NCBI GenBank assembly: GCA_963581225.1
Contig: CAUZMW010000002.1
Location: 1-45,600, forward strand
DNA length: 45,600 nucleotides
Reading direction: 5' to 3'
Source of the DNA: Gammaproteobacteria bacterium
GTDB taxonomy: Bacteria; Pseudomonadota; Gammaproteobacteria; Steroidobacterales; Rariloculaceae
Shown: positions 286-45,600 of the stretch, piece by piece
Position numbering within the stretch: the stretch's first letter is position 1
Layout of the letters: the number at the start of each line of letters is the position of its first letter
The notes under the pieces: generated by a model
Seen by the model: the letters and a program-made list of their open reading frames with translations, nothing else
Told to the model about the DNA's origin: nothing
Databases searched by the model: none
Translations under genes and position numbers: made by a program

Positions 286-546
286 TTGAATAGCTCCAGA
301 GCGTTTTGCCGGAACACCGGGCCATGCGTGGCGATCACGATGGTGTTGCTCCTTTCGAGTGCTCATGCCCATCACTCCGACGCACCGCACTTTCATATGG
401 ATCAGAACGATCGTCACGAAGGTGTGATTACAGAATTTAAGTTCGTGAGCCCACACGGCTACATCTATTTCGATGAAACGTCTGCGGACGGTTCAGTCGA
501 ATCCTGGCGTTGCGAATTACGGCCGGGCGATCTAGTCGAGCACTAG
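286..546 (+). CDS. Short exported protein; truncated copy of the 'HHS...NPH' periplasmic domain family (DUF6152-like)
   Basis: Inside ORF 154..546. A TTG at 286 follows GAGGG (276-280). It gives a signal-like MNSSRAFCRNTGPCVAITMVLLLSSAHA, then HHSDAPHF...FVSPHGYIYF. This is colinear with the N-termini of the 8485..9513 and 32782..34950 products but stops after ~58 mature residues. Start choice is uncertain. Confidence 0.35.
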   Translation: MNSSRAFCRNTGPCVAITMVLLLSSAHAHHSDAPHFHMDQNDRHEGVITEFKFVSPHGYIYFDETSADGSVESWRCELRPGDLVEH

Positions 547-2913: not shown

Positions 2914-4590
2914 CTACGGGTAGATGCTCGGGAGCCGGTCCGCGCGATAGATCGACCAGTTCGAGTCATCGGCCTGGAGACGCATCTCCCAAACCTTCTG
3001 CGCCGGCTGATCGTGCGTTACTTCGATCAGACTGGCCCAACGCTGCGTGCCCATTCCCGGCGGGGCGTTCTGACCGTCGGCATTAGTCTCCCGGCCGCCA
3101 ACATTGATCAGGATATTGTCGGTTTGTGGCTGCCAGTCGACATCGCCCAGATACCGTCCATAGAAAGGTTCGTCATCCGGGCCGTAGACCCAGAGCTGCG
3201 ACACTTCCATCGTCTCTTCGTTGACCGAGTACTCGACGGCGCGACTATAGCTGTCCTCGAGCGACATCCTGGCGTCAGGCGGACTGGAGCGCGCGCCGCC
3301 GTTGTCGAACAACAGGTAGGTGCCGTTCTCGGTGTGCGAGATCGCGTGATGCTTATAAGACCATTCGACATCGCCTACGGGTGTCAGAAGTTTGTCGCTC
3401 CAAGGCGCGTCCCAGTTGTCCGGGTTGCCCAGAATCCAAACGAGTTCGCCCGTGTCCATGCTGATCTTGACCACGGCGTCCTGATAGGGTATCGATATTA
3501 CGAAAGAGTTGTCTTCTTCGTAGATAATCGCATTGCCGTGGGTCCAGTCGTAGACGGCGCCATCGATGACGCCGTCGTAGTGGTTCGCCCAGAAGTCCTC
3601 CCGCCGGGAGTTGTAGCCCAAACGGTACGGATCGATGATGTCGTGAAGTTTCCATTCGCGCAGTACGTCGCCGGCGCGTGTCATTTCAATGATGACGTCG
3701 CCGATGACATTCGCCTGCTGAGTTTGCCCGTCGAGTTCATAATTCGCGGGCCAGTCGTCGATCACGCGACTCTCCGTACTCATCAGCAGGAAATTGCCGT
3801 TCGGTAGTTCGACGTAATCATGATGGAAGGTGTCGGTCGCGACCGGAATGCTGCCGTCGTGAACCTCTTTCACGGTGCCGGAGAACTGCCATTGGTTGAT
3901 GACGTTCCCAAGCATATCGATTTCGAGCATGCCGTCTGTGCCGGGCCACACTTCGTAGGCGAAATTGCCGTTCGAAAGCCGGCGGATGTCGTGAACACGA
4001 TGCACGCCGGACAGGTAGTACCAGATGATCTCGCCAGCATCGTCGACGATGATCGCCGGCGAGAAGTTAGCGGGTTCCGACGCGCCGGTTGGTCCCCAAC
4101 GACCGTTGACGTTAAACACCGTGACGCCGGGCTCCATCGCGTCGGGGTTGTGGACGGTAACTACCGGTGTTGGAAATGCGTCCGGCAGCGGTGGTGTCTC
4201 GAACGTCAGTCCCTCTGAGAGCGTTTCGTTACCGTCGGCATCCTGTAGAGAGGCGGTTATCGTATGCACGCGGCCCGCGCGCAGCCCGATCACCGGCACC
4301 TCATGTTGTGTCGCCATCTCATCATTAGGCGTCACGCTCCAGCTCCGATCGCCGTCGTTAATATTGAGGGTCAGCTCCGAAGGCTCATCGGTCGTCAGAC
4401 TCAAGATGGCCGCGAGAGGTACCGTCGGATTCGGGTTCCCGATCAGACTGACATTGCTGAGCACCGGACCGGCCATGTCAGCAACGGGTGCCGTCGCATC
4501 GCCGCCACTGTCGGGCGCGGTATCGCAGCCGACGAGCAGTAAGGACGAGATCGCTGCTGCGGAGAAGAGAGAATAAGCTTTGCGTGTCAT
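2914..4590 (-). CDS. Arylsulfotransferase (ASST)-family beta-propeller lipoprotein
   Basis: ORF 2914..4611. ATG 4590 is preferred because AGGAG lies 7 nt upstream. Lipobox LLLVGC. N-terminal Ig-like region, then ASST-like motifs TFHHDYVELPNGNFLL, WTHGNAI, LLFDNGG. Confidence 0.65.
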   Translation of the reverse strand: MTRKAYSLFSAAAISSLLLVGCDTAPDSGGDATAPVADMAGPVLSNVSLIGNPNPTVPLAAILSLTTDEPSELTLNINDGDRSWSVTPNDEMATQHEVPVIGLRAGRVHTITASLQDADGNETLSEGLTFETPPLPDAFPTPVVTVHNPDAMEPGVTVFNVNGRWGPTGASEPANFSPAIIVDDAGEIIWYYLSGVHRVHDIRRLSNGNFAYEVWPGTDGMLEIDMLGNVINQWQFSGTVKEVHDGSIPVATDTFHHDYVELPNGNFLLMSTESRVIDDWPANYELDGQTQQANVIGDVIIEMTRAGDVLREWKLHDIIDPYRLGYNSRREDFWANHYDGVIDGAVYDWTHGNAIIYEEDNSFVISIPYQDAVVKISMDTGELVWILGNPDNWDAPWSDKLLTPVGDVEWSYKHHAISHTENGTYLLFDNGGARSSPPDARMSLEDSYSRAVEYSVNEETMEVSQLWVYGPDDEPFYGRYLGDVDWQPQTDNILINVGGRETNADGQNAPPGMGTQRWASLIEVTHDQPAQKVWEMRLQADDSNWSIYRADRLPSIYP

Positions 4591-4723
4591 GATCGAACTC
4601 CTGAGAGGCAAGATTGAAGTGAAGCGGTGCTCTCTTTACTGGGTCTGACAGGCGCCCGCGACGGAGGCTGCGGCCGGTGGGCCGGGCGCCCGGCGACTAC
4701 CCTGTGGGTCGCGCGAGAGACTC

Positions 4724-4775: not shown

Positions 4776-4923
4776 CGTTTCGTCCTCGGCATGGTAGGCT
4801 TTGGCTCCGGTTCCAAGCGCTGAGTTAACTAACTTAGAAGACGCGTCGGCCGGTTTCTTGTTGCAGTCAGTCTATCATGGCGAGCCTGCGTTACGGCCGA
4901 TACGAAAGAGTAAGGGGTCATCC

Positions 4924-6516
4924 ATGTTTGTTTCTAGATGCGCTAGCTTGTTCGCGATTATCCTCATCGTCGGAGCCGGTTTTGGCGCACGCGCTTACGA
5001 AGTCTTTCAGGGTCCGACCGAGCTGATCCAGTACGATCCGGCGAAAGCGGCATCAGGTTATACGATCTTCAGCCCGTTCCGCGGCCAGAATACCTATCTG
5101 ATCGACATGCACGGCGAAGTCGTGCACTACTGGCCGTACCCGGAAGGCTGGAGTATCTCCGGGTCCGAAGCAATCGAAAAGCATGCCCGCATGCTCGAAG
5201 ACGGAACGCTGTTGCGCGGTGTGGTCGACAAAGCCAACCGTGGCGGTATGAGCGGAGCGAGATATCAACTAGTGGACTGGGACGGCGGAGTGATCTGGGA
5301 GCAGGGTGATGAGCGCCCCGACGTCTCACCGCACCACGACTTTCGCATGATCTGGAATCCAGAACTCGAAGAGCGAACATTGTTGTACGCCGCGACGATG
5401 TCGATTACGCATGACGAAGCCATCGCCGCGGGCGTCAACCCGAAAGGCTCGGACGATATCTCCTCGAATCCGGATGGTATGGTCGAAATCGATATGGACG
5501 GCAACGTCATCTGGGAGTGGAACATCAGCGATCATACGATTCAGGATGTCGCTCCACAGCTAGGTAACTATGGCGTCGTCGCCGACAATCCGGGCAAAAT
5601 GGATCCCAACTTCGGTGGTGGGGTCAGCGGTGATTGGATTCATATCAACAGTTTCGATTACAACGCCGTACTCGACCAGATCATCATCAACAATTCCGCG
5701 TTCAGCGAGTCCTATGTCGTCGATCATGGTGCGACGTTCGTGCCAGACGATCCGGAGGAGAGTATCGCTCTGGCCGCGAGCGACGCAGGCGACTTCATCT
5801 TTCGCTGGGGTAACCCTTGTGTGTACGATTCCGGGGACTGTCCTTCCTCGACTAATGAGGGCCAAGCCAGTACCAACGGCCATCAGCAAGTTTTCTTCTC
5901 CCACGACATTCAATGGATTCGCGATCGCGAAGTCGGGCCGGAGATCGGCGATCTGCCGGGCGCCGGGAACTTCCTGATTTTCGATAACGGTGCACGCCGC
6001 TTAGGGCAGACGTTCTCCTCGATCATTGAGTTCAACCCGTACGATGGACCGATGGAAGATGGCCGTTATATCTCGGAGGTAGATGGCGGCTTTAACGTTC
6101 CTAGCGGCGGTATGGGAATGGGCATGGCTCCCGGCGCGGCCGATATCACCTCTAAACAGATCGTCTGGAGCTACCGACCGCCGGTACCCGCCGCGCTCTA
6201 CAGCAGTTACATCTCGGGTGCGCAGCGGCTTTCCAACGGTAATACGCTTGTTTGTTCCGGCGGCCACGGCCATTTCTTCGAGGTCACGCCCGACGGCGAG
6301 GTCGTTTGGGAATACGTCAACCCGGTAGGCGATCGTACCGGTGGCGATTACGCGATCTACACGACGATGACGCAGGACGCCGCAGAGCGCGTGAACTCCA
6401 CCTTCAAGTGCGCTCGCTATGAACTAGACTATCCTGGTCTTCAGGGTAAGGATCTGACGCCGATGGGGCAGGTCACGGAGATTCACAGAACCGAGGTGGA
6501 CAGGCCGCCACGGTAG
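4924..6516 (+). CDS. Exported arylsulfotransferase-like beta-propeller protein
   Basis: ORF 4801..6516. ATG 4924 follows AAGGGG and yields the signal/anchor MFVSRCASLFAIILIVGAGFGARA. Motifs HHDFRMIWNPE, DWIHINSFDYN, FLIFDNGARR, NGNTLVCSG are typical of ASST-type propellers. Confidence 0.6.
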   Translation: MFVSRCASLFAIILIVGAGFGARAYEVFQGPTELIQYDPAKAASGYTIFSPFRGQNTYLIDMHGEVVHYWPYPEGWSISGSEAIEKHARMLEDGTLLRGVVDKANRGGMSGARYQLVDWDGGVIWEQGDERPDVSPHHDFRMIWNPELEERTLLYAATMSITHDEAIAAGVNPKGSDDISSNPDGMVEIDMDGNVIWEWNISDHTIQDVAPQLGNYGVVADNPGKMDPNFGGGVSGDWIHINSFDYNAVLDQIIINNSAFSESYVVDHGATFVPDDPEESIALAASDAGDFIFRWGNPCVYDSGDCPSSTNEGQASTNGHQQVFFSHDIQWIRDREVGPEIGDLPGAGNFLIFDNGARRLGQTFSSIIEFNPYDGPMEDGRYISEVDGGFNVPSGGMGMGMAPGAADITSKQIVWSYRPPVPAALYSSYISGAQRLSNGNTLVCSGGHGHFFEVTPDGEVVWEYVNPVGDRTGGDYAIYTTMTQDAAERVNSTFKCARYELDYPGLQGKDLTPMGQVTEIHRTEVDRPPR

Positions 6517-6537: not shown

Positions 6538-7485
6538 ATGAACCGCATAACAATGATGACCTTGCTGACGCTTTCCGGCATTGTATCGACAGCGAACGCA
6601 CAATCCTGGCAGCCACCATCCGAAGAGGACCGCTGCCCGTCTAAGTGGGGAGTCGGTGACGAGCGCGGTTCGGGTAACCATATGGGGCCCGCTTCCGTGT
6701 TACGGGCGACGCAATTGATACGCCGCGGCGAAGTCATCGAACTCGGACACGTGTTGCACGCGGAGATACCGCTTGGTACCCGCCATTTCGATCTCTACCC
6801 CAAGCCGACGGCGATGAACTCTCAAAGCAATCGCAGGGGTTCGAACGAGGAACTCGTCGTTACGGAACTCGGCCAGGTGGGTACGCAGATCGATGGCTTC
6901 AGTCACCAGTCGATCGGTAACTCGCTCTACAACTGTTTTCACGTCGACGAGACGCAGACGCGAGCGGGATTCACGCGGCTCGGCATAGAGAATGTGGGCA
7001 CGCTCATGACGCGCGGTGTGCTGCTCGATATCGCCAAGCTCAAGGGCGTGGATATGCTGCCCGAGGATTATGAAATTACGACGGAAGATCTCCAGCAGGC
7101 ATTAAGCCGCGAAGAGTTGACATTGGAGCCCGGCGACGCCGTGATCATCAATACCGGTTGGGGGCGACTCTGGGAACGCGATGTCCCGCGGTTCCTCGGT
7201 CCGGCTCCAGGTATCGGAGTAGCCGCCGCGCAATGGCTCGTCACGCAAGACCCGATGATTGTGGGTGCCGACAATCAGCCTGTCGAGATTCAACCGAATC
7301 CCGACCCGGCGCTGTCGCTGCCAGTTCATCAAATCATGCTCGTGGTCAACGGGATCCATATATTGGAAAGAATGAGGCTCGAAGAGCTTGCTGCACAGGA
7401 AGTGTACGAATTCGCTTTGATCATCCAGCCGTTGAAGATTCAGGGGGCGACGGGAGCGTCGGTTGCGCCCGTGGCAATGTTCTGA
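6538..7485 (+). CDS. Exported cyclase-family protein (kynurenine formamidase-like fold)
   Basis: Signal peptide MNRITMMTLLTLSGIVSTANA. Cyclase-family core QVGTQIDGFSH (nt 6874-6906) aligns to the HxGTHxDxxxH motif. N-terminal WGxxDxxGxxN region is present. Confidence 0.75.
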   Translation: MNRITMMTLLTLSGIVSTANAQSWQPPSEEDRCPSKWGVGDERGSGNHMGPASVLRATQLIRRGEVIELGHVLHAEIPLGTRHFDLYPKPTAMNSQSNRRGSNEELVVTELGQVGTQIDGFSHQSIGNSLYNCFHVDETQTRAGFTRLGIENVGTLMTRGVLLDIAKLKGVDMLPEDYEITTEDLQQALSREELTLEPGDAVIINTGWGRLWERDVPRFLGPAPGIGVAAAQWLVTQDPMIVGADNQPVEIQPNPDPALSLPVHQIMLVVNGIHILERMRLEELAAQEVYEFALIIQPLKIQGATGASVAPVAMF

Positions 7486-7492
7486 TCGCCGA

Positions 7493-8476
7493 CTACGGAC
7501 TGAACGGTACGACCTTCACCGTGTCGCCGATCTCGAAACGCATCAGATCGTCGCCGGTCTGTAGCGGGCCCGAGTAAGTGGTCCGTGTGCGTTCCACTAC
7601 CCTTTCGATTGTGACTTCCGGCGCCCGGGGCGCGCTCAATAAGACGTAGTGCGTGTACACCGCGAGCTTGGGCGCGGCGCGCGTGAAAACGATTCCGGCT
7701 TCCTCGGGCGTCGTATGATGGTCGAGAATAAACTGCATGCGCTGATCGAAATTCAGAATCTCTTCGTTCGCGGCGGCGACTTCGTGGATCAAGACGTCGA
7801 CACCTTCGGAGATTTCGATCAGGTTCTCATCGAACTTCGTGTCTCCAGAAATCACGACCGAACGCCCGGCGTAGTCAATGCGATAATCGAATGACGGCTT
7901 GATGTACTCACCGTGATCGACGGAAAAAGCCGTGACGACAATGCCGTCTTCGTCGAAAACGACGCCGTCGTCCGAGAACTCATGCACTTCGAATTCGGCG
8001 CCGGCAGGAGGGAGTTGCTCATCGATAATGCGGGTCTGGATATTAGGGTCCATCGCCTGCCGGAGTCCGTCGAGAATGCCTTCTATTCCGGTCGGCCCCC
8101 AGACCCGCCACGGCGCGCTTCTGCGGCCGAACGGATTCGGCAGCCAACCCGTCATCCAGACGTCCGTCAAACCGTTTAGATGGTCATGGTGGAAATGCGT
8201 GATGAAAAGTTCGTCGATATCGCCCAAGGCGATGCCAAGTTGCCCGAGGCGTTGAGCAGCGCCGCGGCCGGCGTCGAACAGCATGCGATGCTCGCCGGCC
8301 TCTACGAGCGTCGCCGGACCGAACCGGTCTAGACGCGGGATCGGGTCGCCGGTGCCGAGTAGCGTCACGTTAAGCGTTTGGCTTTGAGCGGTCGGCAGCC
8401 ACAAGAAAATCGCGAGCAATGCGCTCACCGCCAATCTCGGTGCGCGGCAAGCCCGCGGGTCGTATAAGCTAATCAT
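7493..8476 (-). CDS. Exported MBL-fold metallohydrolase (RNase Z/AtsA-like size class)
   Basis: Signal-like N-terminus ...LAVSALLAIFLWLPTAQSQ. HxHxDH motif in ITHFHHDHL. 327 aa. AGGA lies before the ATG, which is 8 nt after the upstream gene's stop, so the two are probably co-transcribed. Confidence 0.8.
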   Translation of the reverse strand: MISLYDPRACRAPRLAVSALLAIFLWLPTAQSQTLNVTLLGTGDPIPRLDRFGPATLVEAGEHRMLFDAGRGAAQRLGQLGIALGDIDELFITHFHHDHLNGLTDVWMTGWLPNPFGRRSAPWRVWGPTGIEGILDGLRQAMDPNIQTRIIDEQLPPAGAEFEVHEFSDDGVVFDEDGIVVTAFSVDHGEYIKPSFDYRIDYAGRSVVISGDTKFDENLIEISEGVDVLIHEVAAANEEILNFDQRMQFILDHHTTPEEAGIVFTRAAPKLAVYTHYVLLSAPRAPEVTIERVVERTRTTYSGPLQTGDDLMRFEIGDTVKVVPFSP

Positions 8477-8484
8477 GGATATCC

Positions 8485-9513
8485 TTATCTCTCTACGTAG
8501 CGTTCTACGTTACATTCATATGGTCGGATGACGTCGCCGCGGTCCGAGGCGAAGTAGGTGTTCCAGCTCACGGGTTCGGTCAGTGTCGCCGGGTCCGTTA
8601 TCGTCAATTCGTAATCCAGGCGTCGCCCGCCGTCGGTGACCGTGAAGCGCTCGAATGTCTCGACTCCTTCACTTTGAGCAACTCCGACGCGGTTAAAGTA
8701 TGGATAGTCGATGTCCGTCGTCTCGACGATCAGTGCGCCGTCCTCCCAGCGGCCGACGGAGTAGCCTAACGGTGATGGCACGCGCTCAGCGTTATCGGGA
8801 GTGAGATGAATCGTCCGAACGTTGTCGAACTCCTCCAACCGAAGAATGATCACGTCGTCCTGCTCGCTGAACTGCATCGGATACGGGTTGCCCATCGTCG
8901 GGGGCATGCCGGGAGGTATGCATTGCAGCAACGGATCTTCCGTCTGTGGATCCCAGACAGCGAAGGCGTCACGAGCCGAGTCGGTTAACGGCAGCTCGCG
9001 GTCGAGCGGTACGCGACGACCACCGGCGATCGACCAGGTCTGAAAAAGACCGCCGGTGCCTTCCGATAGATCCGGGGCCGGCGTAGATTCGGCCGGCCGT
9101 GCGGCGCCACCATAGTAGTCGTTCGCCCAGTGTGGCTGACCGTTGCCCGGGCTGACAATGACTTCGGTGCCATTGTCGAGGAGCACGTTCGTCACGCTGA
9201 GTTGCCGCGGCCGCTTCGTCGATCGATTCACGGCGACGGTAACCCGAGCGCCCGCTTGAAAGACATCCCGCGGCACGCCCTTGCGCGCCAGCGTGTTCCA
9301 CGATGCAGCCTCCATCTCCCAGAGTTGCTCGGTACCGTTATCATCGACGGTTTTGAGCGTGAAATTCACGTGCGGGTTGCGCCAGTAAGCGGCGACGATC
9401 TCGCCGTCCATCTCAACTACGTCATCGTCGAATTCTGCTTGCGAATGATGCCCGAGCGCCGGAAACGCCAAGATCAACGTACCGATAAGTGTGGCCAGGC
9501 GAGTTCTCAGCAT
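8485..9513 (-). CDS. Exported two-domain protein: N-terminal 'HHS...WRNPH' (DUF6152-like) domain plus a conserved Cys-bracketed C-terminal domain; function unknown
   Basis: AAGGGA RBS. Signal MLRTRLATLIGTLILAFPALG followed by HHSQAEFD...YWRNPHVNF. The C-terminal region QCIPPGMP..PYPMQF..SVGRWEDG..ERFTVTDGGRRLDYELTITDPATLTEP..PYEC is colinear with residues ~200-345 of the 32782..34950 product. Confidence 0.7.
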   Translation of the reverse strand: MLRTRLATLIGTLILAFPALGHHSQAEFDDDVVEMDGEIVAAYWRNPHVNFTLKTVDDNGTEQLWEMEAASWNTLARKGVPRDVFQAGARVTVAVNRSTKRPRQLSVTNVLLDNGTEVIVSPGNGQPHWANDYYGGAARPAESTPAPDLSEGTGGLFQTWSIAGGRRVPLDRELPLTDSARDAFAVWDPQTEDPLLQCIPPGMPPTMGNPYPMQFSEQDDVIILRLEEFDNVRTIHLTPDNAERVPSPLGYSVGRWEDGALIVETTDIDYPYFNRVGVAQSEGVETFERFTVTDGGRRLDYELTITDPATLTEPVSWNTYFASDRGDVIRPYECNVERYVER

Positions 9514-9539
9514 GTGTGTCCCTTGGTGTTCCGGTGACG

Positions 9540-9600
9540 ACGAAGGGGCGTCCCCGTATCTGTAGGCGTCGCGATTCTTCTCCTTGTCTAGACTCGGGCA
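9540..9600. repeat. Degenerate or partial copy of the palindromic element seen at 32644 and 36614
   Basis: GGGGCGTCCCCGTAT (9545-9559) looks like the two element arms collapsed together. CGTCGCGATTCTTC (9567-9580) is identical to 32764-32777. TGTCTAGAC resembles the element loop ATCTAGACAG. Confidence 0.3.
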
Positions 9601-9672
9601 CGTTTAGGCACGATCATATCGGCGGCCCATACCGAATCGCGAATAGTTATAAGAATCCCGGGAGGAGACGTG

Positions 9673-11220
9673 ATGTCCAAAGAATCATTGCTGAATCGAC
9701 GATCCATCAGAATCTGCTGTATTTTACCCGCGTTGTTCATCGTCGGTTGCGATACTCAGCCAGAGACTCCGGCGGCACCCGCTTCGAGCGCCACCGCCGC
9801 TATGCCGGCTGAGGTCGAGGCTGAATACGCCAACGCCCGAAATATGCAGCTCGTCGGCTATCACGATCTTCAGGCGCGTTCCGCTTATCAACCGATAGTT
9901 CACGCCTATGGCGATCGCCGCATTCTCTTCGTCGGCCAGCACGCCGGAGAGCAGTTAAATCCTCAAACCGGCCAGGTCGAGGTGAACGGCATGTCGATCC
10001 TCGACGTGACCGATCCGAGTGCGCCCGTCATGCTGCGTCATGTGCCGCCGACGGGCGATGAAGCGAGCGGTACTCAACACGTGCAGATCTGCAACGGATC
10101 GGATCTGCCGAACGGCGACCTCAATCGAGTCTACGCCATGCGTACCAACGGACTTCTGGGCTACGAATTGTTCGACGTCACCGATCCCGCCGAGCCACAT
10201 CTTCTGCGCACTATCGCGGAGACGGCCGACTCGTCGCGCCCCGAATCCAGCCGCGGCAACCGCGAGACTCATAAGGGCCAATGGCACTGTGAGACGGGAC
10301 TTGGATTCTTTAACGGTACGCCGGCCGGCTGGCGCGTAACGCGGGTGCTGCAGACCTACGATCTCAGTAATCCGGAAGAGCCGCGGCACATCCGTGACTT
10401 CGGACTTGTCGGTTGGGAGCCGAATGCTGAGGGGCCGTTCCCCGACTATCAGATCTCAGGCCTGCATCAGCCGTATGTCACCGGTAACCGTATGTATCTG
10501 GGTTACGGCAGCGGCAACAATGGCACGCTGCAGATTCTCGATCTGGATAAGTTCCTGAGCGGCGACCCGGAGGCCGAGGATCCGTACGCGCCGACGCCGG
10601 AAAATTTGCTCTACCCACAAATCGCACGTTTAGACATGCCGGCGTACTGGGGCGTGCACACGGCGAAACCTGTGTACGGCGTGCCGATTAGCGGCTATGA
10701 GGACGACCTAGAAAATGGCACTCGCGATATTTTGCTGGTGCCGTCGGAGGCTGGAGGCGGGGCCCGCCGCTGCCAGGGCACACGGGATGTCATGTTTATC
10801 CTCGACATCACGCAAGAGGACAAGCCGTTCCCGATATCGACTTATCAGGCTGCCGAGGAACCCGGAGACTTCTGCCATCGGGGCGGACGCTTCGGCCCGC
10901 ATTCGATTAACGATGCCGATCATCCAGGTTTCGACGGCAGACTCGTCGTGTTGTCGTACTTCAATGCCGGGGTCAGAGCTGTCGATATCCGAGATCCGTT
11001 CGACCCTGTTGAGGTCGGCTACTTTGTGCCCGAGACCACCGAGAACACGACTGAGCTCTGCGTTGAGGTAGACGGAACGGAAATCTGTGACGCGGCGATT
11101 CAGACGAACAACGTCAACATCGATGACCGCGGTTATATCTATGCCGTCGATCGTTCATCCACGGGGCTGCACATCCTTGAACTAACGGGTGACGCAAGAG
11201 ATATTGTCGGGCTTGAGTGA
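9673..11220 (+). CDS. LVIVD-repeat beta-propeller lipoprotein
   Basis: GGAGGAG precedes GTG 9670 / ATG 9673. Lipobox LFIVGC. Recurrent LVIVD-type repeats: MSILDVTDPSAP, YELFDVTDPAEP, LQTYDLSNPEEP, VRAVDIRDPFDP, GLHILELTG. Confidence 0.6.
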   Translation: MSKESLLNRRSIRICCILPALFIVGCDTQPETPAAPASSATAAMPAEVEAEYANARNMQLVGYHDLQARSAYQPIVHAYGDRRILFVGQHAGEQLNPQTGQVEVNGMSILDVTDPSAPVMLRHVPPTGDEASGTQHVQICNGSDLPNGDLNRVYAMRTNGLLGYELFDVTDPAEPHLLRTIAETADSSRPESSRGNRETHKGQWHCETGLGFFNGTPAGWRVTRVLQTYDLSNPEEPRHIRDFGLVGWEPNAEGPFPDYQISGLHQPYVTGNRMYLGYGSGNNGTLQILDLDKFLSGDPEAEDPYAPTPENLLYPQIARLDMPAYWGVHTAKPVYGVPISGYEDDLENGTRDILLVPSEAGGGARRCQGTRDVMFILDITQEDKPFPISTYQAAEEPGDFCHRGGRFGPHSINDADHPGFDGRLVVLSYFNAGVRAVDIRDPFDPVEVGYFVPETTENTTELCVEVDGTEICDAAIQTNNVNIDDRGYIYAVDRSSTGLHILELTGDARDIVGLE

Positions 11221-25344: not shown

Positions 25345-26842
25345 GTGGAAGTCTGGTCGCAGGTTCTAGAACAGCTGCTCTTTATTGCGCAGACCCCGAT
25401 GCTCTGGGTCGCCTGTCTAAGCGGTGTGACACTCGGGATACTCTGGGGGGCGATGCCGGGCCTGTCTACGACAATGGCGATGACGCTGCTCATCGGCCTG
25501 ACCGTGGGTATGTCCCAATCCGTCGCCATCATATTTATGATCGGGGTCTACACCGGTAGTGTGTTCGGCGGCGCGATCTCAGCCGTACTCATCAATATCC
25601 CCGGCACGCCCGACGCCGTGCCGACGATGATCGAGGGCTACGCGCTCGCGAAGCGAGGGCGGACTGGCGCTCGGCACGGCGATCTCAGCTTCGTTTATCG
25701 GCAACTGGGTTGGCATCCTTCTACTCATCGCACTGATACCGGCCGTACTGTTCTTCGCGTTGCAGTTCAGATCCTGGGAGATGTTTCTACTCTCGCTGTG
25801 GGGGATCGCCATCTGTGGTTCGATGTCTTCTATGGAGATGCCGTTAAAGGGATGGATCTCAGGATGGCTCGGTCTCATGGTGTCGTTCGTCGGTCTGGAT
25901 GCCATTCACGGCGTTTCTCGGTTCAGTTTCGGCTCGTACAACCTGGATGACGGAGTAAGTTTTATTCCGGTTCTGATCGGCTTGTTCGGCTTGACCGAGA
26001 TACTTCGAGTACTGCTGCAGAAATCTCCGCCGTCGATCCCGTCGGATGTCGGTCGGGTGCTTCCGTCGCTACGATCTCTGGTCAAGTACATCCGGCCGAG
26101 TTTTAGGTCCGGGATTATCGGTACGGTGATTGGCGCCATCCCGGGTGCCGGAGCAAACGTTGCGTCTTTCTTTTCTTACGATGTCGGCCGGCGGCGCGCC
26201 AGTGCGGAGGAGAAGAAGAAGTGGGGCAAGGGTAGCTACGAGGCGATCGTTTGCGCGGAAGTTGCCAACAATGCCAACGTTGGAGGGTCGATGTTACCGA
26301 CATTGGCATTGGGTATACCGGGCAACGCGGCGGCGGCAGCCATACTGGCCGCGTTAGAGCTGAAGAACGTTGTCGTGGGGCCGTTGATCCAGACAGAGAA
26401 CCCGGGTCTGATTTTCTATATCTATATCGGGCTGATCGTCGCCAATTTCTTCATGTACGCCATGGCCATCGCGTTGATTAAACCGTGTGTAAAATTGTTC
26501 AGCCTCCCCAAGACGCTCCTGATGCCGCTGATTCTGCCGATCTGTGTGATCGGCGCGTTCGCCGTCAATCTGAATTACTTCGACGTCTACGTGATGCTGA
26601 TTTCCGGGTTGATCGGCTACGTACTTCACCGGTTCGGGTTTCCTCTGGCACCGATCGTGCTGGCCGTCATTCTTGGGCCGCTGGCGGACGAGAACCTTCG
26701 GCGTGCACTGCTGGTATTCGAGGATGTCGCTGTGTTGACGATCCTGTGGGAGCGCAAGCTCGGTACGGTACTACTGCTGGTCGTGCTGTACACTTTTTAT
26801 GATGGAATCTTTAAGCGTGGAAAATCGAGAGCTGAAAACTAA
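25345..26842 (+). pseudogene. tctA: tctA interrupted by a +1 frameshift near 25657-25667
   Basis: Frame of 25345 reads a normal TctA N-terminus up to ...MIEGYALAKRG, then turns to junk. The frame of 25760 is open back to the TGA at 25628-25630 and reads GGLALGTGISASFIGNWVGILLLIALIPAVLFFALQF..., colinear with KALEMSLFASAISDFLSDIF... of the intact TctA at 17055. The switch falls at the GGGCGG run. Confidence 0.8.
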
Positions 26843-28306: not shown

Positions 28307-28894
28307 ATGGCTTCGGTCTGGGGAGAGTTAAAGCGACGTAGCGTCGTTAAGGTTGCGGTGGCGTACGCCATTGTCGCCTGGTTGTTGATCCAGATTATCG
28401 TCTCGGTCGAAGGGCCACTAAATCTTCCCGACTGGATCGACACCTTCGTTATCGTGCTGTTGGCGGTCGGCTTTGTCGTCTCATTGATTTCCGCTTGGGC
28501 GTACGAGTTGACTCCAGACGGTGTGAAGCAAGCAAAGTTGCTGCCAGGAAGCGTTACGAGTATGGTCGGGCAGCTTGCGGAGTTCGATCCCGACCAACCG
28601 ATTCAGCTTCGTGGCACGCTGACGAAGATCGAGCTCATCAATTCGCATTCGTGGTTTCACATCGATGTCGTCACGGAAAACGGTGCCATTGAGGCTTGGG
28701 CGATCGAAGCAGGAACACCCAATACGCTGTTCCGTAAGGGCATCAACAAGAACACGCTACCGCTGGGTATAGAGATCATTGTCGACGGTTATCGGGCCAA
28801 GAACGGCACGACCACCGCCAGTGGCCGTGACATCACGTTCTCGGACGGACGGCAGTTGTACTTGGAAGGATCGGCGCCGCCCGCTCCCGAGTAA
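28307..28894 (+). CDS. N-terminally membrane-anchored protein with a C-terminal DUF6152-like domain lacking the His-His start
   Basis: AAGGGGG RBS. N-terminus ELKRRSVVKVAVAYAIVAWLLIQ...LPDWIDTFVIVLLAVGFVVSLISAWAYELTPDG is a two-TM module I recall from many TPR/cyclase proteins. C-terminus LAEFDPDQPIQLRGTLTKIELINSHSWFHIDV...NTLFRKG aligns with the HHS-family domain. Confidence 0.6.
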   Translation: MASVWGELKRRSVVKVAVAYAIVAWLLIQIIVSVEGPLNLPDWIDTFVIVLLAVGFVVSLISAWAYELTPDGVKQAKLLPGSVTSMVGQLAEFDPDQPIQLRGTLTKIELINSHSWFHIDVVTENGAIEAWAIEAGTPNTLFRKGINKNTLPLGIEIIVDGYRAKNGTTTASGRDITFSDGRQLYLEGSAPPAPE

Positions 28895-28941: not shown

Positions 28942-30021
28942 ATGCTGCAAGCAAGAACAATACGGCTTTTCATCATGGCTGTTATAGCCGCTACCTGGTC
29001 GGTGGGACTACTCGCGCAGAACAGAAACGCGCCTATGGCACGGTGGTGGGAGCCCACCAACGACCTCCAGAATCCATGGGTTGGGCAGGTGCTGCCCCTC
29101 CCTGACGGCAGAGACTGGGGGTCCACGGCCGGCGTAGATGTCGACCCGACGAACGGCACTGTCTGGATTATCGATCGATGTGGTTCCAATACCTGCGTCG
29201 GTTCGGATCTCGATCCGATCCTCCATTACGATGCGAATGGCGCGTTTCTGAACAGCTTCGGCAGTGAGATGTTTGCTTTCCCCCACGGCATACACGTCGA
29301 TATGAACGGGAACGTTTGGGTGACTGATCCGTTGCCTGCGGATGGGAGAGGAGCTGGTGGGAATGTTGGTCAACAGGTCACGAAGTTTAATCCGAACGGC
29401 GAAGTTCTCATGGAGTTAGGAACTAGGATGGTGACAGGGAGGGGCACGAACACGTTCAGTTCGCCTTCCGATGTCGTTGTTGGCAGAAACGGTGACATCT
29501 TCGTGGCGGACGGACATGCAGAGGGCACGAACGAGCGCATCGTGAAGTTCGACCGAAACGGAAAGTACATTAAGGAGTGGGGAGTCCCTGGCTTTGGACC
29601 TTGCGGGAGCAACCAGTTCTCGAGCCTTCACGCGCTGGAGCTTGACTCTCAAGGCAGGCTTTTCGTCGGGGATCGCGACAACAACCGCATTCAGATTTTC
29701 GACCAGGAGGGAAATTTCCTGGAATGCTGGTTCCAGTTCGGCCGCCCGAGCGGAATTCATATCGATGCCAACGACATCATCTATGTCGCTGACTCCGAAT
29801 CGAGGACCGATGCTCCTGACTATGGCGGTCCGCCGAGCCCATTCGCGCGCGGGATCCGAGTGGGAAGCGCAAAGGACGGTTCCGTGAGCTATTTCATCCC
29901 GGACCCAGAACAACTCAGAGGAGGCAGCAGCGCAGCGGAGGGCGTTGCTGCAACTGACGACGGCATCATATTTGGTGCGGAAGTGGGTCCCCGGCAGGTG
30001 TTACGTTACGAGCGACAATAG
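28942..30021 (+). CDS. Exported NHL-repeat six-bladed beta-propeller protein
   Basis: GGAGG RBS and a signal peptide. NHL-type repeats: NGNVWVTD, NGDIFVADGH..ERIVKFDRNGKY, GRLFVGDRDNNRIQIFDQEGNF, IIYVADSES. Confidence 0.7.
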   Translation: MLQARTIRLFIMAVIAATWSVGLLAQNRNAPMARWWEPTNDLQNPWVGQVLPLPDGRDWGSTAGVDVDPTNGTVWIIDRCGSNTCVGSDLDPILHYDANGAFLNSFGSEMFAFPHGIHVDMNGNVWVTDPLPADGRGAGGNVGQQVTKFNPNGEVLMELGTRMVTGRGTNTFSSPSDVVVGRNGDIFVADGHAEGTNERIVKFDRNGKYIKEWGVPGFGPCGSNQFSSLHALELDSQGRLFVGDRDNNRIQIFDQEGNFLECWFQFGRPSGIHIDANDIIYVADSESRTDAPDYGGPPSPFARGIRVGSAKDGSVSYFIPDPEQLRGGSSAAEGVAATDDGIIFGAEVGPRQVLRYERQ

Positions 30022-30079: not shown

Positions 30080-30646
30080 CTAACGTCGCTGTACCGCTTC
30101 GAGTGACTTCAAGACATTCTCCGCCGGCGTAATCCCGCTGATCGTCTCGGCGATCTTGCCATCCGGGCTCACGATGAACGTCGTGCGCTCGGCGAAGCCG
30201 TGATCGATCTCGACACCACGCGTGTCCTCTGCACCCTCGCGGCGATCGCGAACGACGAGGTTGTACGACCTGGCGATATCGCCGGAAGCGTCGGAGGCTA
30301 CGGCAAGCTTGCCGGCGCAATACTCCGGATCGGCCGAAAAGTCATTGAGTCGCTCGATGCTGTCGAGAGAGACCCCGATCACGCTCGCGCCCGCGGCCGT
30401 GAACTGATCCATGTTCTCGGCGAACTCGTGCGCCTGAATGTTGCACCCTCGCGTAAAAGCCGACGGGTAGAAGTAGACCACGACCGGGCCCGCATCGAGC
30501 GCCTCACGGAGCGAGAAATCGAACGGCTCGCCGTTCAACGACGCTCTCGCCTCGAAGATCGGAGCGTTATCGCCTACTTCCAGCGCTGCGAAGGCGGGCA
30601 GAGCGGCGATAGTAACGCCCAGAATACCGAATAGAATCTTTTTCAT
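30080..30646 (-). CDS. Exported peroxiredoxin (AhpC/TSA, BCP-like)
   Basis: ORF 30080..30727. ATG 30646 gives the signal MKKILFGILGVTIAALPAFA. Redoxin motif VVYFYPSAFTRGC. Confidence 0.8.
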   Translation of the reverse strand: MKKILFGILGVTIAALPAFAALEVGDNAPIFEARASLNGEPFDFSLREALDAGPVVVYFYPSAFTRGCNIQAHEFAENMDQFTAAGASVIGVSLDSIERLNDFSADPEYCAGKLAVASDASGDIARSYNLVVRDRREGAEDTRGVEIDHGFAERTTFIVSPDGKIAETISGITPAENVLKSLEAVQRR

Positions 30647-30760
30647 GATATCCCCATTCTTGGTTGGTCCGATTTTAGTGCCTGGCGGCCAATGCTCTAT
30701 CCTGACGACTGCGAAGGCGACACGCAAGCCCTGGAATAGGCGTTACGGCCGAAGGGAGTA

Positions 30761-32781: not shown

Positions 32782-34950
32782 CTACGGCGAGTAGTGATCC
32801 ATGGTCGCGCAATCGGTGCAGCGGACGTCTTCGATCGGCCGCCCGTCTACCATGTCGGCGATCCAGTCCCGATACCGCCGTCCGTCGACCTGGTAGCTGT
32901 AAAAGCGGTCGTAGATATAGGGTAGACCCCGATTGCGGTTACCGGTCTGCGGAATGGAGTCGAAATAGCCGAGGCTGATGACGTGTTTGTTGCCGCCGGC
33001 CACGTAAGTACGGTAGTTGTCGACCTGGCTTTTAACATGCTCGTGGCCCGCCTCGACAACATCGAGGATCGGACCGTCCACGCCCAAGTACTCGAGCATC
33101 TCCGAGAACACCATGTCGTGAGCCGTGATCATCTGCGTGAACACGATCTCCGGGTGACGCCGGGCGGCGGCGATCGTGATGTCTTCGAAGCTGAAGTTGT
33201 CCGGGTCGAGTCCCGCGAAGCCTGTGTGTTCGTTCAATAAGTCCACCGTGCCCCAGGCTTCCCGGATCGGTTGTAGGAGTTCGCCGATGAAGAGCGCGCC
33301 GTTACCGTCACCGAGGTGGCGTACGGCGGCATCGGGGTAGTGATCCGCGACGACCGACGCATAGAAGGGCGTACCGTAGCTCCCCGATGTGTGGCCACTG
33401 ATGACGACGGTTTCGGGCGATTCAAAGTTATCGAAAACCCAGTCGAGGACGGTCATTGCATTGCGATAACCGTTGAAATGCAGCGTGTCGCTGATCCGGG
33501 TCTCACCGTTCTCGAGCGGACCGTCGTTCGGACGCACGGCGTCACCGATATGCATGTCGCCTGTGCAGTAACCGACGAGCACCTTGGTGAAATCCTGAAA
33601 CGGGTTCTCGGAATTATCTTCCGCCATAATTCCGGTCGATCCGGCTGGATTGTCTTCGGCTCGTACGGTCTTTGGATTGTCGTCCATGCGGCCGACGGGT
33701 TCGTCGGTACAGGTCAACCCGGACCAACACGCGCCGCCACCGGGGAAACTGATCAGCACCTTGCTCGGGTCGGCCGGACGGGCGAAGAACCCGTATTCCG
33801 TCCCATAGAGACACATCGTATCTTCGCCGGGGCGAATCGTGTTCCAGTCGTCCGAGAGGTCGGCGAAGGCGGGTCGTCCCACGTGATTCGTAGCCGCGGC
33901 TGTCAGCGTGCCGGCCGTCTGCTCGCATTCGTAAGGCGCGACTGTCTCGCCGGGAACCCAGAACCAGTACTTGCTGAAGGTGGTTGGTTCCGTAAACACG
34001 GCGGGATTCGTCATCGTCATCGTGTAGTCGAGGCGCTTGCCGTCTGCGGTCGGCGTAAATCGCTCAACGATTTCGGCACTGGCGGAGTTCGGGACGCCGG
34101 TCATATCGACATACGGCCAGCTGCTGCCCGTTGTTGTCACCACCAGCGTGTCGCCTTCCCAGCGGCCGACGGAGTGGCCCATCAGAGTCGGTTCGCGACC
34201 TGCCGCTGTTGCACCCGGCGTCATGTCGATTTCCCGTACTGCGTCGCCTTCCTCCATTCGCAGCAGGATCGTGTCCCCGTCTTGAACGAGTTCCATCGGA
34301 TAAGGCTGTTCCATGATCGTCGGCATGCCTTTGTGCACGCAGCCTGCCGCCAGGATCGGGTTGCTGTACATGTCATAGCCGGCACGGGTGGTGGTGGCCG
34401 TAGCGGTTAGCGGAAAGTCGTAGCGCTCGAACAGCATCACTTCCGCGGGCCCGAGGCCGAGGCTCGTGCTCCAGACACGAAAGATAGTCGCCTCCTCGCC
34501 GGACGATCCTTCCAGATCGTCCTCTGTCACCAGCCACGCCGAAGCGTCGCCGGCGACATTCTCGCTCCACCGAGGCGGGAGTCCCGGCATGAAGACGATT
34601 TCCTGGCCGTCCTGCATGAGCATGTTGGTTACGAACATCTCATTGCCGCCGCGTTGCGCCGGCCAGCCGGCCACGCTCACGTGATCACCAGGTGATACGG
34701 CGTCCCGCGTCAGGTTCATTCGCCTGAGGATGCTGACCGAGTTCGCTTCGATGTGCCATACGGCCCCGTCGCCGCTACTGGATTCGATCGTAAAAATGAC
34801 ATGAGGGTTTCGCCATTGAACCTCGATAACCTCGCCTTCCGCTTCGACAGTCGTCTCCGGATCGAAGAACAGGAAAGGTGAGTGATGCCCGGCCGCCGTC
34901 AGGCTATAGAGCATCGATGCCGTGATAACAGCAGGTTTCAGCAATGACAC
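32782..34950 (-). CDS. Exported three-part fusion: HHS/WRNPH (DUF6152-like) domain, conserved Cys-bracketed domain, and pectin-acetylesterase-like alpha/beta-hydrolase domain
   Basis: GTG 34950 lies 9 nt after GGGAG. Signal ...SLTAAG, then HHSPFLFFD..VQWRNPHVIF. Residues ~200-345 are paralogous to the 8485..9513 product. Residues ~355-722 carry PAE/Notum-like landmarks: FPGGGACWSGLTC, VGYCTGDMHIGD, LHFNGYRN, VISGHTSGSYG. Confidence 0.7.
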   Translation of the reverse strand: MSLLKPAVITASMLYSLTAAGHHSPFLFFDPETTVEAEGEVIEVQWRNPHVIFTIESSSGDGAVWHIEANSVSILRRMNLTRDAVSPGDHVSVAGWPAQRGGNEMFVTNMLMQDGQEIVFMPGLPPRWSENVAGDASAWLVTEDDLEGSSGEEATIFRVWSTSLGLGPAEVMLFERYDFPLTATATTTRAGYDMYSNPILAAGCVHKGMPTIMEQPYPMELVQDGDTILLRMEEGDAVREIDMTPGATAAGREPTLMGHSVGRWEGDTLVVTTTGSSWPYVDMTGVPNSASAEIVERFTPTADGKRLDYTMTMTNPAVFTEPTTFSKYWFWVPGETVAPYECEQTAGTLTAAATNHVGRPAFADLSDDWNTIRPGEDTMCLYGTEYGFFARPADPSKVLISFPGGGACWSGLTCTDEPVGRMDDNPKTVRAEDNPAGSTGIMAEDNSENPFQDFTKVLVGYCTGDMHIGDAVRPNDGPLENGETRISDTLHFNGYRNAMTVLDWVFDNFESPETVVISGHTSGSYGTPFYASVVADHYPDAAVRHLGDGNGALFIGELLQPIREAWGTVDLLNEHTGFAGLDPDNFSFEDITIAAARRHPEIVFTQMITAHDMVFSEMLEYLGVDGPILDVVEAGHEHVKSQVDNYRTYVAGGNKHVISLGYFDSIPQTGNRNRGLPYIYDRFYSYQVDGRRYRDWIADMVDGRPIEDVRCTDCATMDHYSP

Positions 34951-42847: not shown

Positions 42848-42887
42848 CCAACTATCAGTGAGCTTTTCACCCTTGTCTATGCGCCGT

Positions 42888-45600
42888 CAATCCACCAACG
42901 CCGGCAATTCACCGCTCGCCGCGCAACTCAGCCGAGAGCTGGAGGGCGAGGTTCTCTTCGACGCGTTTAGCCGCGGCCGTTATAGCACGGACGCCTCGAT
43001 GTATCAGATCCAGCCTATCGGGGTGGTGGTGCCGCGCCACAAGGATGATGTGCTCTGCGCAATCCAGATCGCGGCTCAGCACGGCGTGCCGGTACTGCCG
43101 CGGGGCGCGGGGACCTCCCAGGCCGGCCAGACTGTCGGTGAGGCGCTCGTCATCGATGCGAGCAAATATCTGACGGGAGTCAATGAGTTCAGGCCAGGTG
43201 ATCGAACGGTAGCAGTGGAACCCGGCATCGTCCTCGACACGCTCAACGAGTTTCTGAAGCCTCACGGGCTGTTTTTCCCCGTGGATGTCTCGACCTCCAG
43301 CAGAGCGACGATCGGTGGGATGGCCGGAAATAACAGCGTCGGCGCCCGCTCGCTCCACTACGGTCATATGGTCGATAACGTCCGTGGAATCCATGCGGTC
43401 CTGGGCGACGGCGAGCAAATACGCCTCGGCGCAAGTGGTCGCCGATCGGCTGATGCCGGCAACGGCCACGCTGCCGAGAACGGAACGCTCAGCCGCATCG
43501 CGGACCAGATGCAGAGTCTCTACGCACGCAATGCCGATGAGATTGCGCGGCGTTATCCGCAAGTCGCTCGCAATGTTGCGGGCTACAACATCAATCGCCT
43601 GGGTCGCGCCGATCCGAATCTCGCCGATCTGCTGGTCGGCTCCGAGGGAACGCTGGCGTGGTTTCAGGAACTGGAACTCGCGCTGCAACCGATACCGGCC
43701 AATAAAGTACTCGGTGTCTGCCACTTCCCGACGTTTTTGGCGGCGATGGAGTCGGTACAGCACATCGTCACGCTTGATCCCGCGGCGACCGAGCTGATTG
43801 ACCGGACCGTGCTCGACCTCGCTGCTGATATTCCGGCTTTCGGCTCGTCCATGAGCAGTTTTATCAACGGGAGCCCGGCGGCCGTGTTGCTCGTCGAATT
43901 CGCCGGCGACGATCGCGATGAGCAACTGCGGAAACTCGATCAGCTCGAAGAAATCATGGGAGAGCTGGGTCTGCCCGACTCCGTGCTGCGGGCGGATGGC
44001 GCCGCATTACAGCAGTCAATCTGGTCGCTGCGAAAGGCCGCGCTCAATATCGTCATGTCGATAAAGGGCGACGGTAAGCCGATCTCGTTCGTCGAGGACT
44101 GCGCGGTGCCGCTGGAGAAACTCGGCGAGTACACGCGGCGGCTAACCGAGGTCTTCGACCGCCACGGCACGACGGGGACTTGGTACGCCCACGCCGGCGT
44201 GGGCTGTCTGCATGTGCGCCCGATATTGAATCTCAAGGAAGATACCGAGGTCGCCAAGCTGCGTACGATCGCGGCCGAAGCGCACGCGCTCGTGCAGGAG
44301 TACAAAGGCTCTCATTCCGGGGAGCACGGCGACGGGCTCGCCCGATCGGAGTTTCTCGAGCCGATACTCGGCTCGCAGATCGTCGCCGCGTTCAAGGAAG
44401 TGAAACAGAGTTTCGACCCCGGCGGGCTATTCAATCCCGGGAAGATTGTCGATCCGCCGCGGATGGACGATCGCGCCTTAATGCGCTTCCCGGCGAACTA
44501 CCAGCCACAGCAACAGACCGAGGCATTGGACTGGTCGGCCTGGGGTGGATTTCATCGTGCGACCGAGATGTGCAACAACAACGGCGCCTGTCGAAAGATC
44601 GATGCCGGTGTGATGTGTCCATCTTATCGCGTCACTCGCGACGAGCAGCACGTCACACGGGGACGGGCGAACTCACTGCGTTTGGCGTTGACGGGCCAAC
44701 TGGACGCGGATGCGCTGACGTCGAAAGAGCTCTACGCGGCGATGGATCTCTGCATCGGTTGCAAGGCGTGCAAACGCGAATGCCCAACCGGCGTCGACAT
44801 GTATCGGATGAAGATCGAATTCCTCAGCGCCTACAAGGAACGCTGGGGGCTTACATGGCGCGACCGGCTGATTGCCTATCTACCGCGTTATGCGCCTTGG
44901 GCCGCGCGTCTTTCGTTCCTCGCCAATGCCGCCAATCACAGTGGCGTGTTGCGGCGTTTGCGCGAGCGACTGCTTGGACTAACGGCACAGAGACGACTGC
45001 CGGCGTGGCGGCGAGATATTTTTCGAGGTGCCGGTGAAACGGCCGCGCGCGGCCGCGAGGTCGTCCTGCTAGTGGATACCTTTAATACTTACTTCGAGCC
45101 GGAGACGGCGACGGCAGCCATCAATGTGCTGAAGGCCGCCGGCTACCGCGTCGTGACGCCGGCGCCGGTCGATCGAGGCCGGCCGTTGTGCTGTGGTCGA
45201 ACCTTCCTCAATTCTGGGCTGACGGAAGAAGCGAAGTCCGAGGCACGCCGGGTTCTCGCCACGCTGGCGCCTTACGTCGAGCGAGGAGTACCTATCGTCG
45301 GCCTCGAGCCGTCTTGCCTACTGACGCTGCGCGACGAATTCGCCGCCCTGCTGCCGGGCGACGCAACGAACGCATTGGCGAGGAAAGCGATGTTATTTGA
45401 AGAGTTCTTGTCGGCAGAGCGAGCGAGCGGGAGGCTCGATCTGCCGCTCGGCGAGATCGATCAGCCGCGCGCATTACTGCATGGGCACTGCCATCAGAAG
45501 GCCTTTGGAGTCATGTCGAGCGTGGAAGAGGTCTTAAACTGGATCCCAGAGCTGGAAGTCGAAGTCATTGAGTCCGGCTGTTGCGGGATGGCGGGGTCGT
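42888..45600 (+). CDS. FAD-linked oxidase fused to Fe-S/CCG domains (YdiJ-like, glycolate/D-lactate oxidase superfamily); 3' end outside the window
   Basis: Not in the ORF track because no stop falls in the window. My translation from ATG 42888 gives MRRQSTNAGNSPLAAQLSRELEGEVLFDAFSRGRYSTDASMYQIQPIGVVVPRHKDDV...PRGAGTSQAGQ...FPVDVSTSSRATIGGMAGNNSVG (FAD_binding_4). It continues to GSHSGEHGDG, then the Fe-S motifs CNNNGACRK...MCPS and CIGCKACKRECP, and the CCG motifs PLCCGR and ESGCCGMAGS. I spot-checked the frame as continuous at 44580 and 45540. Confidence 0.9.

Follow-up and report, generated by a model that had tools for sequence, protein, structure and literature searches.

An exported OB-fold protein with a predicted N-terminal His-His motif and a lipocalin-like partner domain: DUF6152 as a candidate metal-binding family in uncultured bacteria

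In a 45,600-nucleotide stretch of gammaproteobacterial DNA (positions 1 to 45,600 of contig CAUZMW010000002.1, assembly GCA_963581225.1, lineage Rariloculaceae; hereafter, the window), the minus-strand open reading frame at 8485..9513 encodes a 342-amino acid (aa) precursor composed of a signal peptide, a DUF6152 domain with an oligonucleotide/oligosaccharide-binding (OB) fold (the D domain), and a lipocalin/FABP-like domain (the C domain). The mature protein is predicted to begin His-His-Ser, and we consider it a candidate metal-binding protein. The precursor N-terminus reads MLRTRLATLIGTLILAFPALG followed, after the predicted cleavage site, by HHSQAEFDDDVVEMDGEIVAAYWRNPH. The first of these segments (9451..9513) is a predicted Sec-type signal peptide with two arginines in its n-region, a 12-residue hydrophobic core, and a P-A-L-G c-region; it ends in ALG, HHS follows immediately, and inspection of the leader sequence revealed neither a lipobox nor a twin-arginine motif. 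Only one site in the leader is compatible with the -3/-1 rule, and His is therefore predicted to be residue 1 of the mature protein. In mature numbering, His1, His2, and Ser3 are encoded at 9442..9450, and the sequence WRNPH (residues 23-27, 9370..9384), which includes the invariant His27, lies in the OB barrel at the turn between beta1 and beta2 (loop L12). The D domain (9139..9450), a five-stranded barrel with one helix according to AlphaFold and Foldseek, also carries the conserved residues Trp44, Glu47, and Arg56 and matches Pfam DUF6152 (PF19649) with an E value of 2.3e-15, and the C domain, a beta-barrel with Foldseek matches and invariant columns, occupies 8488..9063 and residues ~150-342 of the precursor (all on the minus strand). 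We found 317 homologues, mostly ~340 aa long and of the same architecture. The AlphaFold model of the mature protein has a predicted local distance difference test score (pLDDT) of 85.5 and a predicted template-modelling score (pTM) of 0.81.

A preliminary description of this DNA, made from the sequence alone, had noted HHS directly after the signal peptide in three products of the window (286..546, 8485..9513, and 32782..34950) and a conserved (W/F)x(N/S)PH motif downstream of it; the open reading frames and their sequences contain both, the latter as FVSPH, WRNPH, and WRNPH, respectively. To follow these features through the family, we checked 120 listed full-length homologues for HH and the cleavage site, ran a profile search of 1.84 billion clustered proteins (E <= 1e-3) in which the motif was tallied in the top 147 representatives, and computed residue conservation on 491 non-redundant homologous domains. 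HH follows the signal peptide in 120/120 listed homologues, with Ser after it in 115/120 and W-x-N-P-H located 22-24 residues beyond HHS in 118/120. The residue at position -1 is A, G, or S in 118/120 and that at -3 is A, V, T, G, or S in 120/120, and cleavage that exposes His1, as the preliminary description had supposed, satisfies the -3/-1 rule in ~99% of homologues. Where HH appeared to be internal, a signal peptide directly preceded it, indicating that these sequences have mis-called start codons. The profile search returned 11,178 representatives of the DUF6152 domain (clusters at 50% identity); HH followed by S, A, or G is present in 144 of the top 147, ~85% of which have profile position 1 at residue 15-30.

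Invariance of His1, His2, and the NPH histidine had been named beforehand as one test of the proposed metal site, and in the 491-domain set these three residues are the most conserved (484/484, 485/485, and 488/491, respectively). Ser3 is present in 447/485, the remainder having A or G, and Asn25 (484/491), Pro26 (488/491), Trp44, Glu47 (464/491), Arg56, Gly16, and Gly67 are each conserved in more than 94% of domains. Single-domain members of ~130-150 aa have the same histidine signature as the two-domain proteins.

AlphaFold modeled the D domain alone with a pLDDT of 93.3 (84 for residues 1-10), placing strands at residues 7-23, 28-35, 41-47, 69-77, and 83-90 and a helix at 51-56. The result is a five-stranded barrel (residues 1-100) in which a helix separates strand 3 from strand 4, the arrangement that defines an OB fold, and Foldseek matched it to the LysRS anticodon-binding domain, SSB/Rim1, PriB, Stn1/Ten1, and RPA with probability 1.0 and template-modelling (TM) scores of 0.45-0.61. 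These nucleic-acid-binding OB proteins are cytoplasmic and 10-22% identical to D, whereas DUF6152 proteins are exported and have a His/Trp/Glu signature of their own, and the likeness is at the level of fold only. A CusF-like or cupredoxin-like fold for D was considered and rejected, as Foldseek did not find one; neither CusF nor any known histidine-brace scaffold is among the top 50 matches. Among PDB sequences, no real match was found for the whole protein, for the D profile, or for C domains. The Pfam and AlphaFold/Foldseek searches that the preliminary description had called for yielded DUF6152, the family it had suggested (all four copies in the window score above 27 bits), and an OB fold. 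In the model, the R-N-P-H turn comes straight after strand 1 (residues 7-23). The first half of strand 1 in the OB topology normally pairs with strand 4, and OB folds usually bind ligands on the face formed by loops L12 and L45. From this usual pairing we infer that residues 1-6, which include the N-terminal histidines, would lie near loop L45, on the ligand-binding face.

The C domain (residues ~135-315) resembles the barrels of FABP/CRABP proteins and tardigrade SAHS proteins (CRABP2 and SAHS4; Foldseek probability 1.0, TM scores of 0.5-0.58 normalised to the target), which places it in the calycin fold at the level of fold only; no Pfam family matched it at E values up to 10. It is marked by the motifs GxFxxW, PPGMP...NPYP, and LGYSVGRWE and by an invariant pair of cysteines, C177 and C313 of the mature protein, that probably form a disulfide. 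About 100 proteins are D-C fusions. At the level of genomic loci, for which our counts cover the top 80 of at least 589 found, genes encoding D only adjoin genes encoding C only in at least 9 of 16 cases. The gene for the 132-aa single-domain D protein lies 42-48 nucleotides (nt) downstream of one for a ~333-aa exported C protein at every locus examined, and upstream of it the ~333-aa protein and one to four further genes carry the C domain. Three loci (L082-L084) have the gene order Amidohydro_2 - MBL - C - C - C - D, where MBL denotes a metallo-beta-lactamase-fold protein, a fourth (L089) has the order C C C D C C D, and two more (L090 and L091) are of the same type. In an extreme local expansion, at least eight D-C genes stand side by side on 13 kb of a Rhodospirillaceae metagenome-assembled genome (L042). 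That D and C are fused in some genomes and adjacent in others is strong evidence that the two work together as a conserved and apparently obligate pair, a partnership that the preliminary description does not mention. Stand-alone C genes (e.g., L082:2840-5952, L089:225-5958, and P0427-P0507) encode proteins of ~290-370 aa with a PDLQGIW motif and occur in runs of two to five, and C-C tandem proteins of ~520 aa are present in Acidobacteriota.

Scanning all six frames of the window with a hidden Markov model (HMM) of the family identified exactly four DUF6152 copies, the number that had been reported, although one of them is only a truncated remnant. With a cut-off of 27 bits, Pfam DUF6152 scores them at 56.9, 58.5, 39.3, and 84.8 bits, and no NCBIfam model matches any of them. 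The second intact copy (32782..34950, minus strand) encodes a 722-aa protein that comprises a signal peptide, D, C, and a pectin acetylesterase (PAE)-like hydrolase (Pfam DUF6152 and PAE; D and C HMM matches); its N-terminal region reads SLTAAG, then, beyond the predicted cut, HHSPF...QWRNPH. The nearest homologues of its PAE part are stand-alone proteins of ~410 aa (65-85% identity) encoded within the same synteny, consisting of a 491-aa TPR-like protein, PAE, SDR, and cyclase (L085-L087). The stand-alone PAE inspected in detail has a lipoprotein-type signal at its start, and at one of these loci (L087) the next gene after PAE encodes a 474-aa DUF6152 protein with a C-terminal membrane region. 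These comparisons indicate that the D-C-esterase fusion is lineage-specific and recent. A long open reading frame at 42858..45599 (plus strand), which encodes FAD-linked oxidase, 4Fe-4S, and CCG domains and is cut short by the window's end, matches the synteny of L086.

The truncated copy (286..546, plus strand) has a signal peptide ending LLLSSAHA, followed by HHSDAP...KFVSPH, and stops ~58 residues into the mature protein. It covers only positions 1-49 of the family profile, with no continuation in any frame by HMM scan, and its Pfam match spans profile positions 7-60 of 98. In the fourth copy (28307..28894, plus strand), a two-helix membrane module takes the place of the signal peptide and HHSF, and LINSH is present instead of NPH. 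The DUF6152 part of this protein is 92% identical to 132-aa proteins in which a signal peptide ending in A precedes HHSFLAEFD...LINPH, a database protein 96% identical to it is the same chimera with NPH still present, and no remnant of the lost signal peptide/HHSF part was found in other frames. Judging from these relatives, the protein is a chimera and not an ancestral anchored form. It had been offered in the preliminary description as a control for the importance of a free N-terminus, and it does lack HH; its chimeric origin, however, and relatives with both a signal peptide and HHS, identify it as a degenerate derivative that therefore provides weak evidence on the role of the N-terminus. 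An NHL-repeat propeller gene (28942..30021, plus strand) begins 48 nt after it, and NHL and other six-bladed propellers recur beside D-C genes. An AhpC/TSA peroxiredoxin with a signal-peptide-like N-terminus is encoded nearby (30080..30727, minus strand), and another AhpC/TSA peroxiredoxin gene lies two genes past a D gene elsewhere (L089:8598-9185); with two cases, this may be coincidence.

Downstream of the D-C gene at 8485..9513, and separated from it by the 8-nt gap TAAggatatccATG that had been reported and that the sequence of the junction confirms, is a gene for an exported MBL-fold metallohydrolase with an HFHHDH motif (7493..8476, minus strand; Pfam Lactamase_B_2 and Lactamase_B). The junction contains an AAGGA Shine-Dalgarno sequence, and the two genes are probably co-translated. 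A promoter scan of 7300..9800 revealed no sigma-70-like site and was uninformative. The proposed partnership with the MBL protein holds for close orthologues, being retained in an orthologous locus of 75% identity (L001), and for a minority of the family: a homologue of the window's MBL is present in only 2/80 loci, any HxHxDH protein within 6 kb in 13/80, and an MBL gene accounts for 8 of 112 flanking genes. For these reasons we rejected the MBL as the defining partner. The other common families among these 112 immediate neighbours are another DUF6152 gene (13), GFO/IDH/MocA proteins (4), arylsulfotransferases (4), several alpha/beta-hydrolase esterases (2-3 each), and NHL and other propellers (3 + 3). 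Genes for pyrroloquinoline quinone (PQQ) dehydrogenases, sulfatases, and TonB-dependent receptors are found there too. The family is known only from metagenome-assembled genomes, which belong to Candidatus Rariloculaceae, Arenicellaceae, Porticoccaceae, Terriglobia/Vicinamibacterales, Gemmatimonadaceae, and Rhodospirillaceae; just among the top 80 loci, a single Candidatus Rariloculaceae genome contributes six to seven.

Several other genes of the window are of note. Two divergent arylsulfotransferase-like genes (2914..4611, minus strand, and 4801..6516, plus strand) lie close to the D-C/MBL pair, and 4 arylsulfotransferases among 112 neighbours elsewhere are many for a rare family. Divergent from the D-C gene, 9670..11220 (plus strand) encodes a 516-aa exported protein with faint beta-propeller/LVIVD similarity; a 515-aa gene occupies the same divergent position in the orthologous locus L001, the likeness being one of length and position. 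Two overlapping open reading frames (25345..25950 and 25760..26842, plus strand; Pfam positions 3-88 and 121-423) share what would be one TctA transporter gene, a sign of a frameshift, pseudogene, or sequencing error.

Relatives of these proteins are named 'DUF6152 family protein' by NCBI, and the Pfam entry (PF19649) carries no function. Our literature search found no paper that mentions DUF6152 or PF19649, none that joins a histidine brace with an OB fold, and none that describes a comparable new bacterial brace family. In a histidine brace, the amino group and pi-nitrogen of His1 together with the tau-nitrogen of another His form a T-shaped N3 arrangement (PMC10952591). The DUF6152 proteins resemble the proteins that contain this arrangement (lytic polysaccharide monooxygenases (LPMOs) of families AA9-AA17, PmoB/AmoB, CopC, PmoF1, YcnI, and X325/Bim1) in that they are exported, have His as residue 1 after cleavage (a prediction for DUF6152), and possess a second invariant His, and they share with LPMOs the co-occurrence or fusion with hydrolases and the presence of many paralogues. 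They differ from them in scaffold, which is an Ig-like/cupredoxin-like sandwich in the brace proteins and an OB barrel in DUF6152, and in the second His, which here directly follows His1. By fold, family HMM (DUF6152 is the only Pfam family reported at E <= 0.01), and PDB sequence search, DUF6152 does not belong with LPMOs, CopC, PmoB, or YcnI. Of the earlier comparison with histidine-brace proteins, then, the predicted N-terminal His and the invariant histidines stand, while the fold is unlike that of LPMOs, CopC, PmoB, or YcnI and no copper-handling genes were found among the neighbours. CusF, a periplasmic Cu(I)/Ag(I) chaperone, is a small OB-like barrel whose metal site is composed of a His with a nearby Trp and two Met. 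The D domain shares with CusF the small periplasmic OB-type barrel, His, and Trp, but the CusF site uses an internal His and two Met whereas D has no conserved Met or Cys; we found no cus genes near DUF6152 genes, and D is not a member of the CusF family. We place the DUF6152 gene outside the known histidine-brace, ZinT (see below), and CusF families, although it could still work like them. What appears to be new is the combination of an OB scaffold, a His-His-...-His set at a (predicted) processed N-terminus, a lipocalin-like partner for which there is no Pfam model, and a recurrent link with exported hydrolases.

We propose, with a probability that we put at roughly 0.45, that the free N-terminus, His1/His2, and His27 of DUF6152 form a mononuclear metal centre. 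According to this proposal, cleavage by signal peptidase I between A-x-G/A and H-H would create the centre, and none would exist before cleavage. One metal ion would be coordinated by the alpha-amino group and the imidazole of His1, with His2 and/or His27 (the latter in the N-P-H turn) as further ligands, on the L12/L45 face of the OB barrel, with Glu47, Trp23, and Trp44 in the surrounding shell. The C barrel, with its putative disulfide, would presumably hold a small hydrophobic or amphipathic organic ligand, and the D-C units would act in the periplasm alongside exported hydrolases on organic substrates. Since D-C units are located beside or fused to exported hydrolases (in the window, the MBL and the PAE-like esterase), their role is probably in the processing of organic substrates in the periplasm. 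Copper would be the likeliest occupant of such a centre, although with less assurance than the centre itself, because an N-terminal His and a His at position 2 are both classic free-amine copper arrangements. Sites of the NH2-X-His (GHK) type are classic copper binders that need a free amine.

Several observations favour a metal centre at the processed N-terminus. The fixation of HH at mature positions 1 and 2 is, in the reading we favour, due to a need for a free alpha-amine. We also count in its favour the size of this constrained family, the linkage of D with C, and the link with hydrolases. The ordered N-terminus of the D model and the passage of strand 1 directly into the NPH turn are also consistent with such a centre. 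In four tandem D-D proteins (P0121, P0182, P0232, and P0259), the internal repeat, which lacks a free amine, never has both HH and His27, and the loss of one or the other fits the same requirement. The chimera at 28307..28894, in which the signal peptide and HHS were lost and NPH became NSH, points in this direction weakly. Other observations weigh against the proposal. Three of the four internal repeats retain HHS even though they have no free amine, and HHS may therefore also have a structural role. Neither Foldseek nor the literature on histidine braces (PMC10952591) provides a histidine-brace protein with the OB fold of D. Genes for copper trafficking or copper enzymes are absent from the window and from the 25 commonest neighbour families. 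Mean-field direct coupling analysis (491 and then 406 domains; Meff ~240) was uninformative, as gap artefacts swamped the first run and subfamily signal the second; a coupling of position 4 with the Arg of WRNPH ranked sixth, and we do not trust it. Finally, three His and a Glu would suit zinc, iron, or nickel just as well.

The main alternative, which we judge unlikely but worth careful consideration, is that the three His, with or without Glu47, bind zinc, nickel, or iron; the protein would then be a ZinT-like periplasmic metal scavenger or chaperone, supplying metal to the Sec-exported metallohydrolases encoded next to it. ZinT (YodA) is a periplasmic protein with a calycin-like barrel and a conserved His-rich HxHHxH zinc-binding sequence at its mature N-terminus (PMC9175090), Glu47 (conserved as noted above) would suit a site of three His and one carboxylate, copper genes were not found nearby, and metal-dependent hydrolases are common in the vicinity (the MBL and HxHxDH proteins counted above, as well as amidohydrolases, a cyclase, and sulfatases). 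The main zinc site of ZinT, however, consists of three His on the barrel and its N-terminal tract is flexible, whereas the histidines of DUF6152 are in a separate, ordered OB domain and comprise an exact HH at positions 1-2 instead of a variable His-rich tract. Copy number and gene context differ as well: seven or more copies in a genome, and arrays of eight in tandem, are not what one sees with proteins of metal homeostasis; enzymes other than metalloenzymes (PAE and other alpha/beta-hydrolases, arylsulfotransferases, and GFO/IDH/MocA oxidoreductases) are numerous among the partners; and the one constant companion, the lipocalin-like C domain, is not a metalloenzyme. Pfam ZinT (PF09223) was not matched at E <= 0.01, nor at E <= 10 by the C domain alone.

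A site without metal, in which the histidines, Trp23, Trp44, Glu47, and Arg56 bind an organic ligand or perform acid/base chemistry on the OB face, perhaps where D meets C, and the N-terminal position is incidental, strand 1 merely happening to begin just after the signal peptide, strikes us as distinctly improbable. Oligomers or small ligands are the usual occupants of that face in OB folds, conserved aromatic and charged residues surround the histidines, and the close coupling of D and C suggests a common ligand site; the retention of HHS in three internal repeats without a free amine, already counted against a metal centre, is naturally accommodated here. It is hard to explain, though, why more than 480 sequences would have HH exactly at +1/+2 relative to the cleavage site if the alpha-amine had no role, the full triad is never retained in an internal repeat, and three invariant His without an invariant nucleophile are more typical of a metal site.

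The remaining two alternatives we regard as very improbable. Some FABP-type barrels bind haem, and with an FABP-like C domain and invariant His available as axial ligands, the histidines could be bis-His ligands of haem or another tetrapyrrole held in the FABP/nitrobindin-like C barrel, but they sit in D and not in the barrel, single-domain D proteins have the whole triad without C, a known haem motif is absent, and haem-uptake and haem-biosynthesis genes were not found among the flanking genes. A sorting or processing tag recognized by another machine after export, outside any active site, would account for the fixed position of HHS directly after the signal peptide, but HHS is modeled with good confidence as part of the folded domain and is co-conserved with His27, Trp44, and Glu47 of that domain, and recurrent dedicated sorting genes were not found among the neighbours.

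DUF6152 comprises more than 11,000 clusters and is present in seven or more copies per genome in some abundant uncultured bacteria of sediment, sponges, and soil, and no source that we could search assigns it a function. If the proposed metal centre exists, the OB fold would join the short list of scaffolds that use a free N-terminal His, which is now made up mainly of LPMOs, particulate methane monooxygenase (pMMO), and copper chaperones. Taking the proposal a step further, D-C pairs might be unrecognised periplasmic copper enzymes that combine an OB histidine brace with a lipocalin-like pocket and, with O2 or H2O2, attack small organic molecules of a hydrophobic or aromatic kind in concert with exported esterases and MBL hydrolases; we consider this a long shot, but, if true, such pairs would be a non-polysaccharide counterpart of LPMOs that has multiplied in uncultured marine and soil Gammaproteobacteria and Acidobacteriota. 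The linkage of D with C suggests a two-part system, in which a small, highly conserved His-His protein is combined with variable lipocalin-like partners beside hydrolases, and it draws attention to a part of organic-matter turnover, in the periplasm, whose chemistry has yet to be explored.

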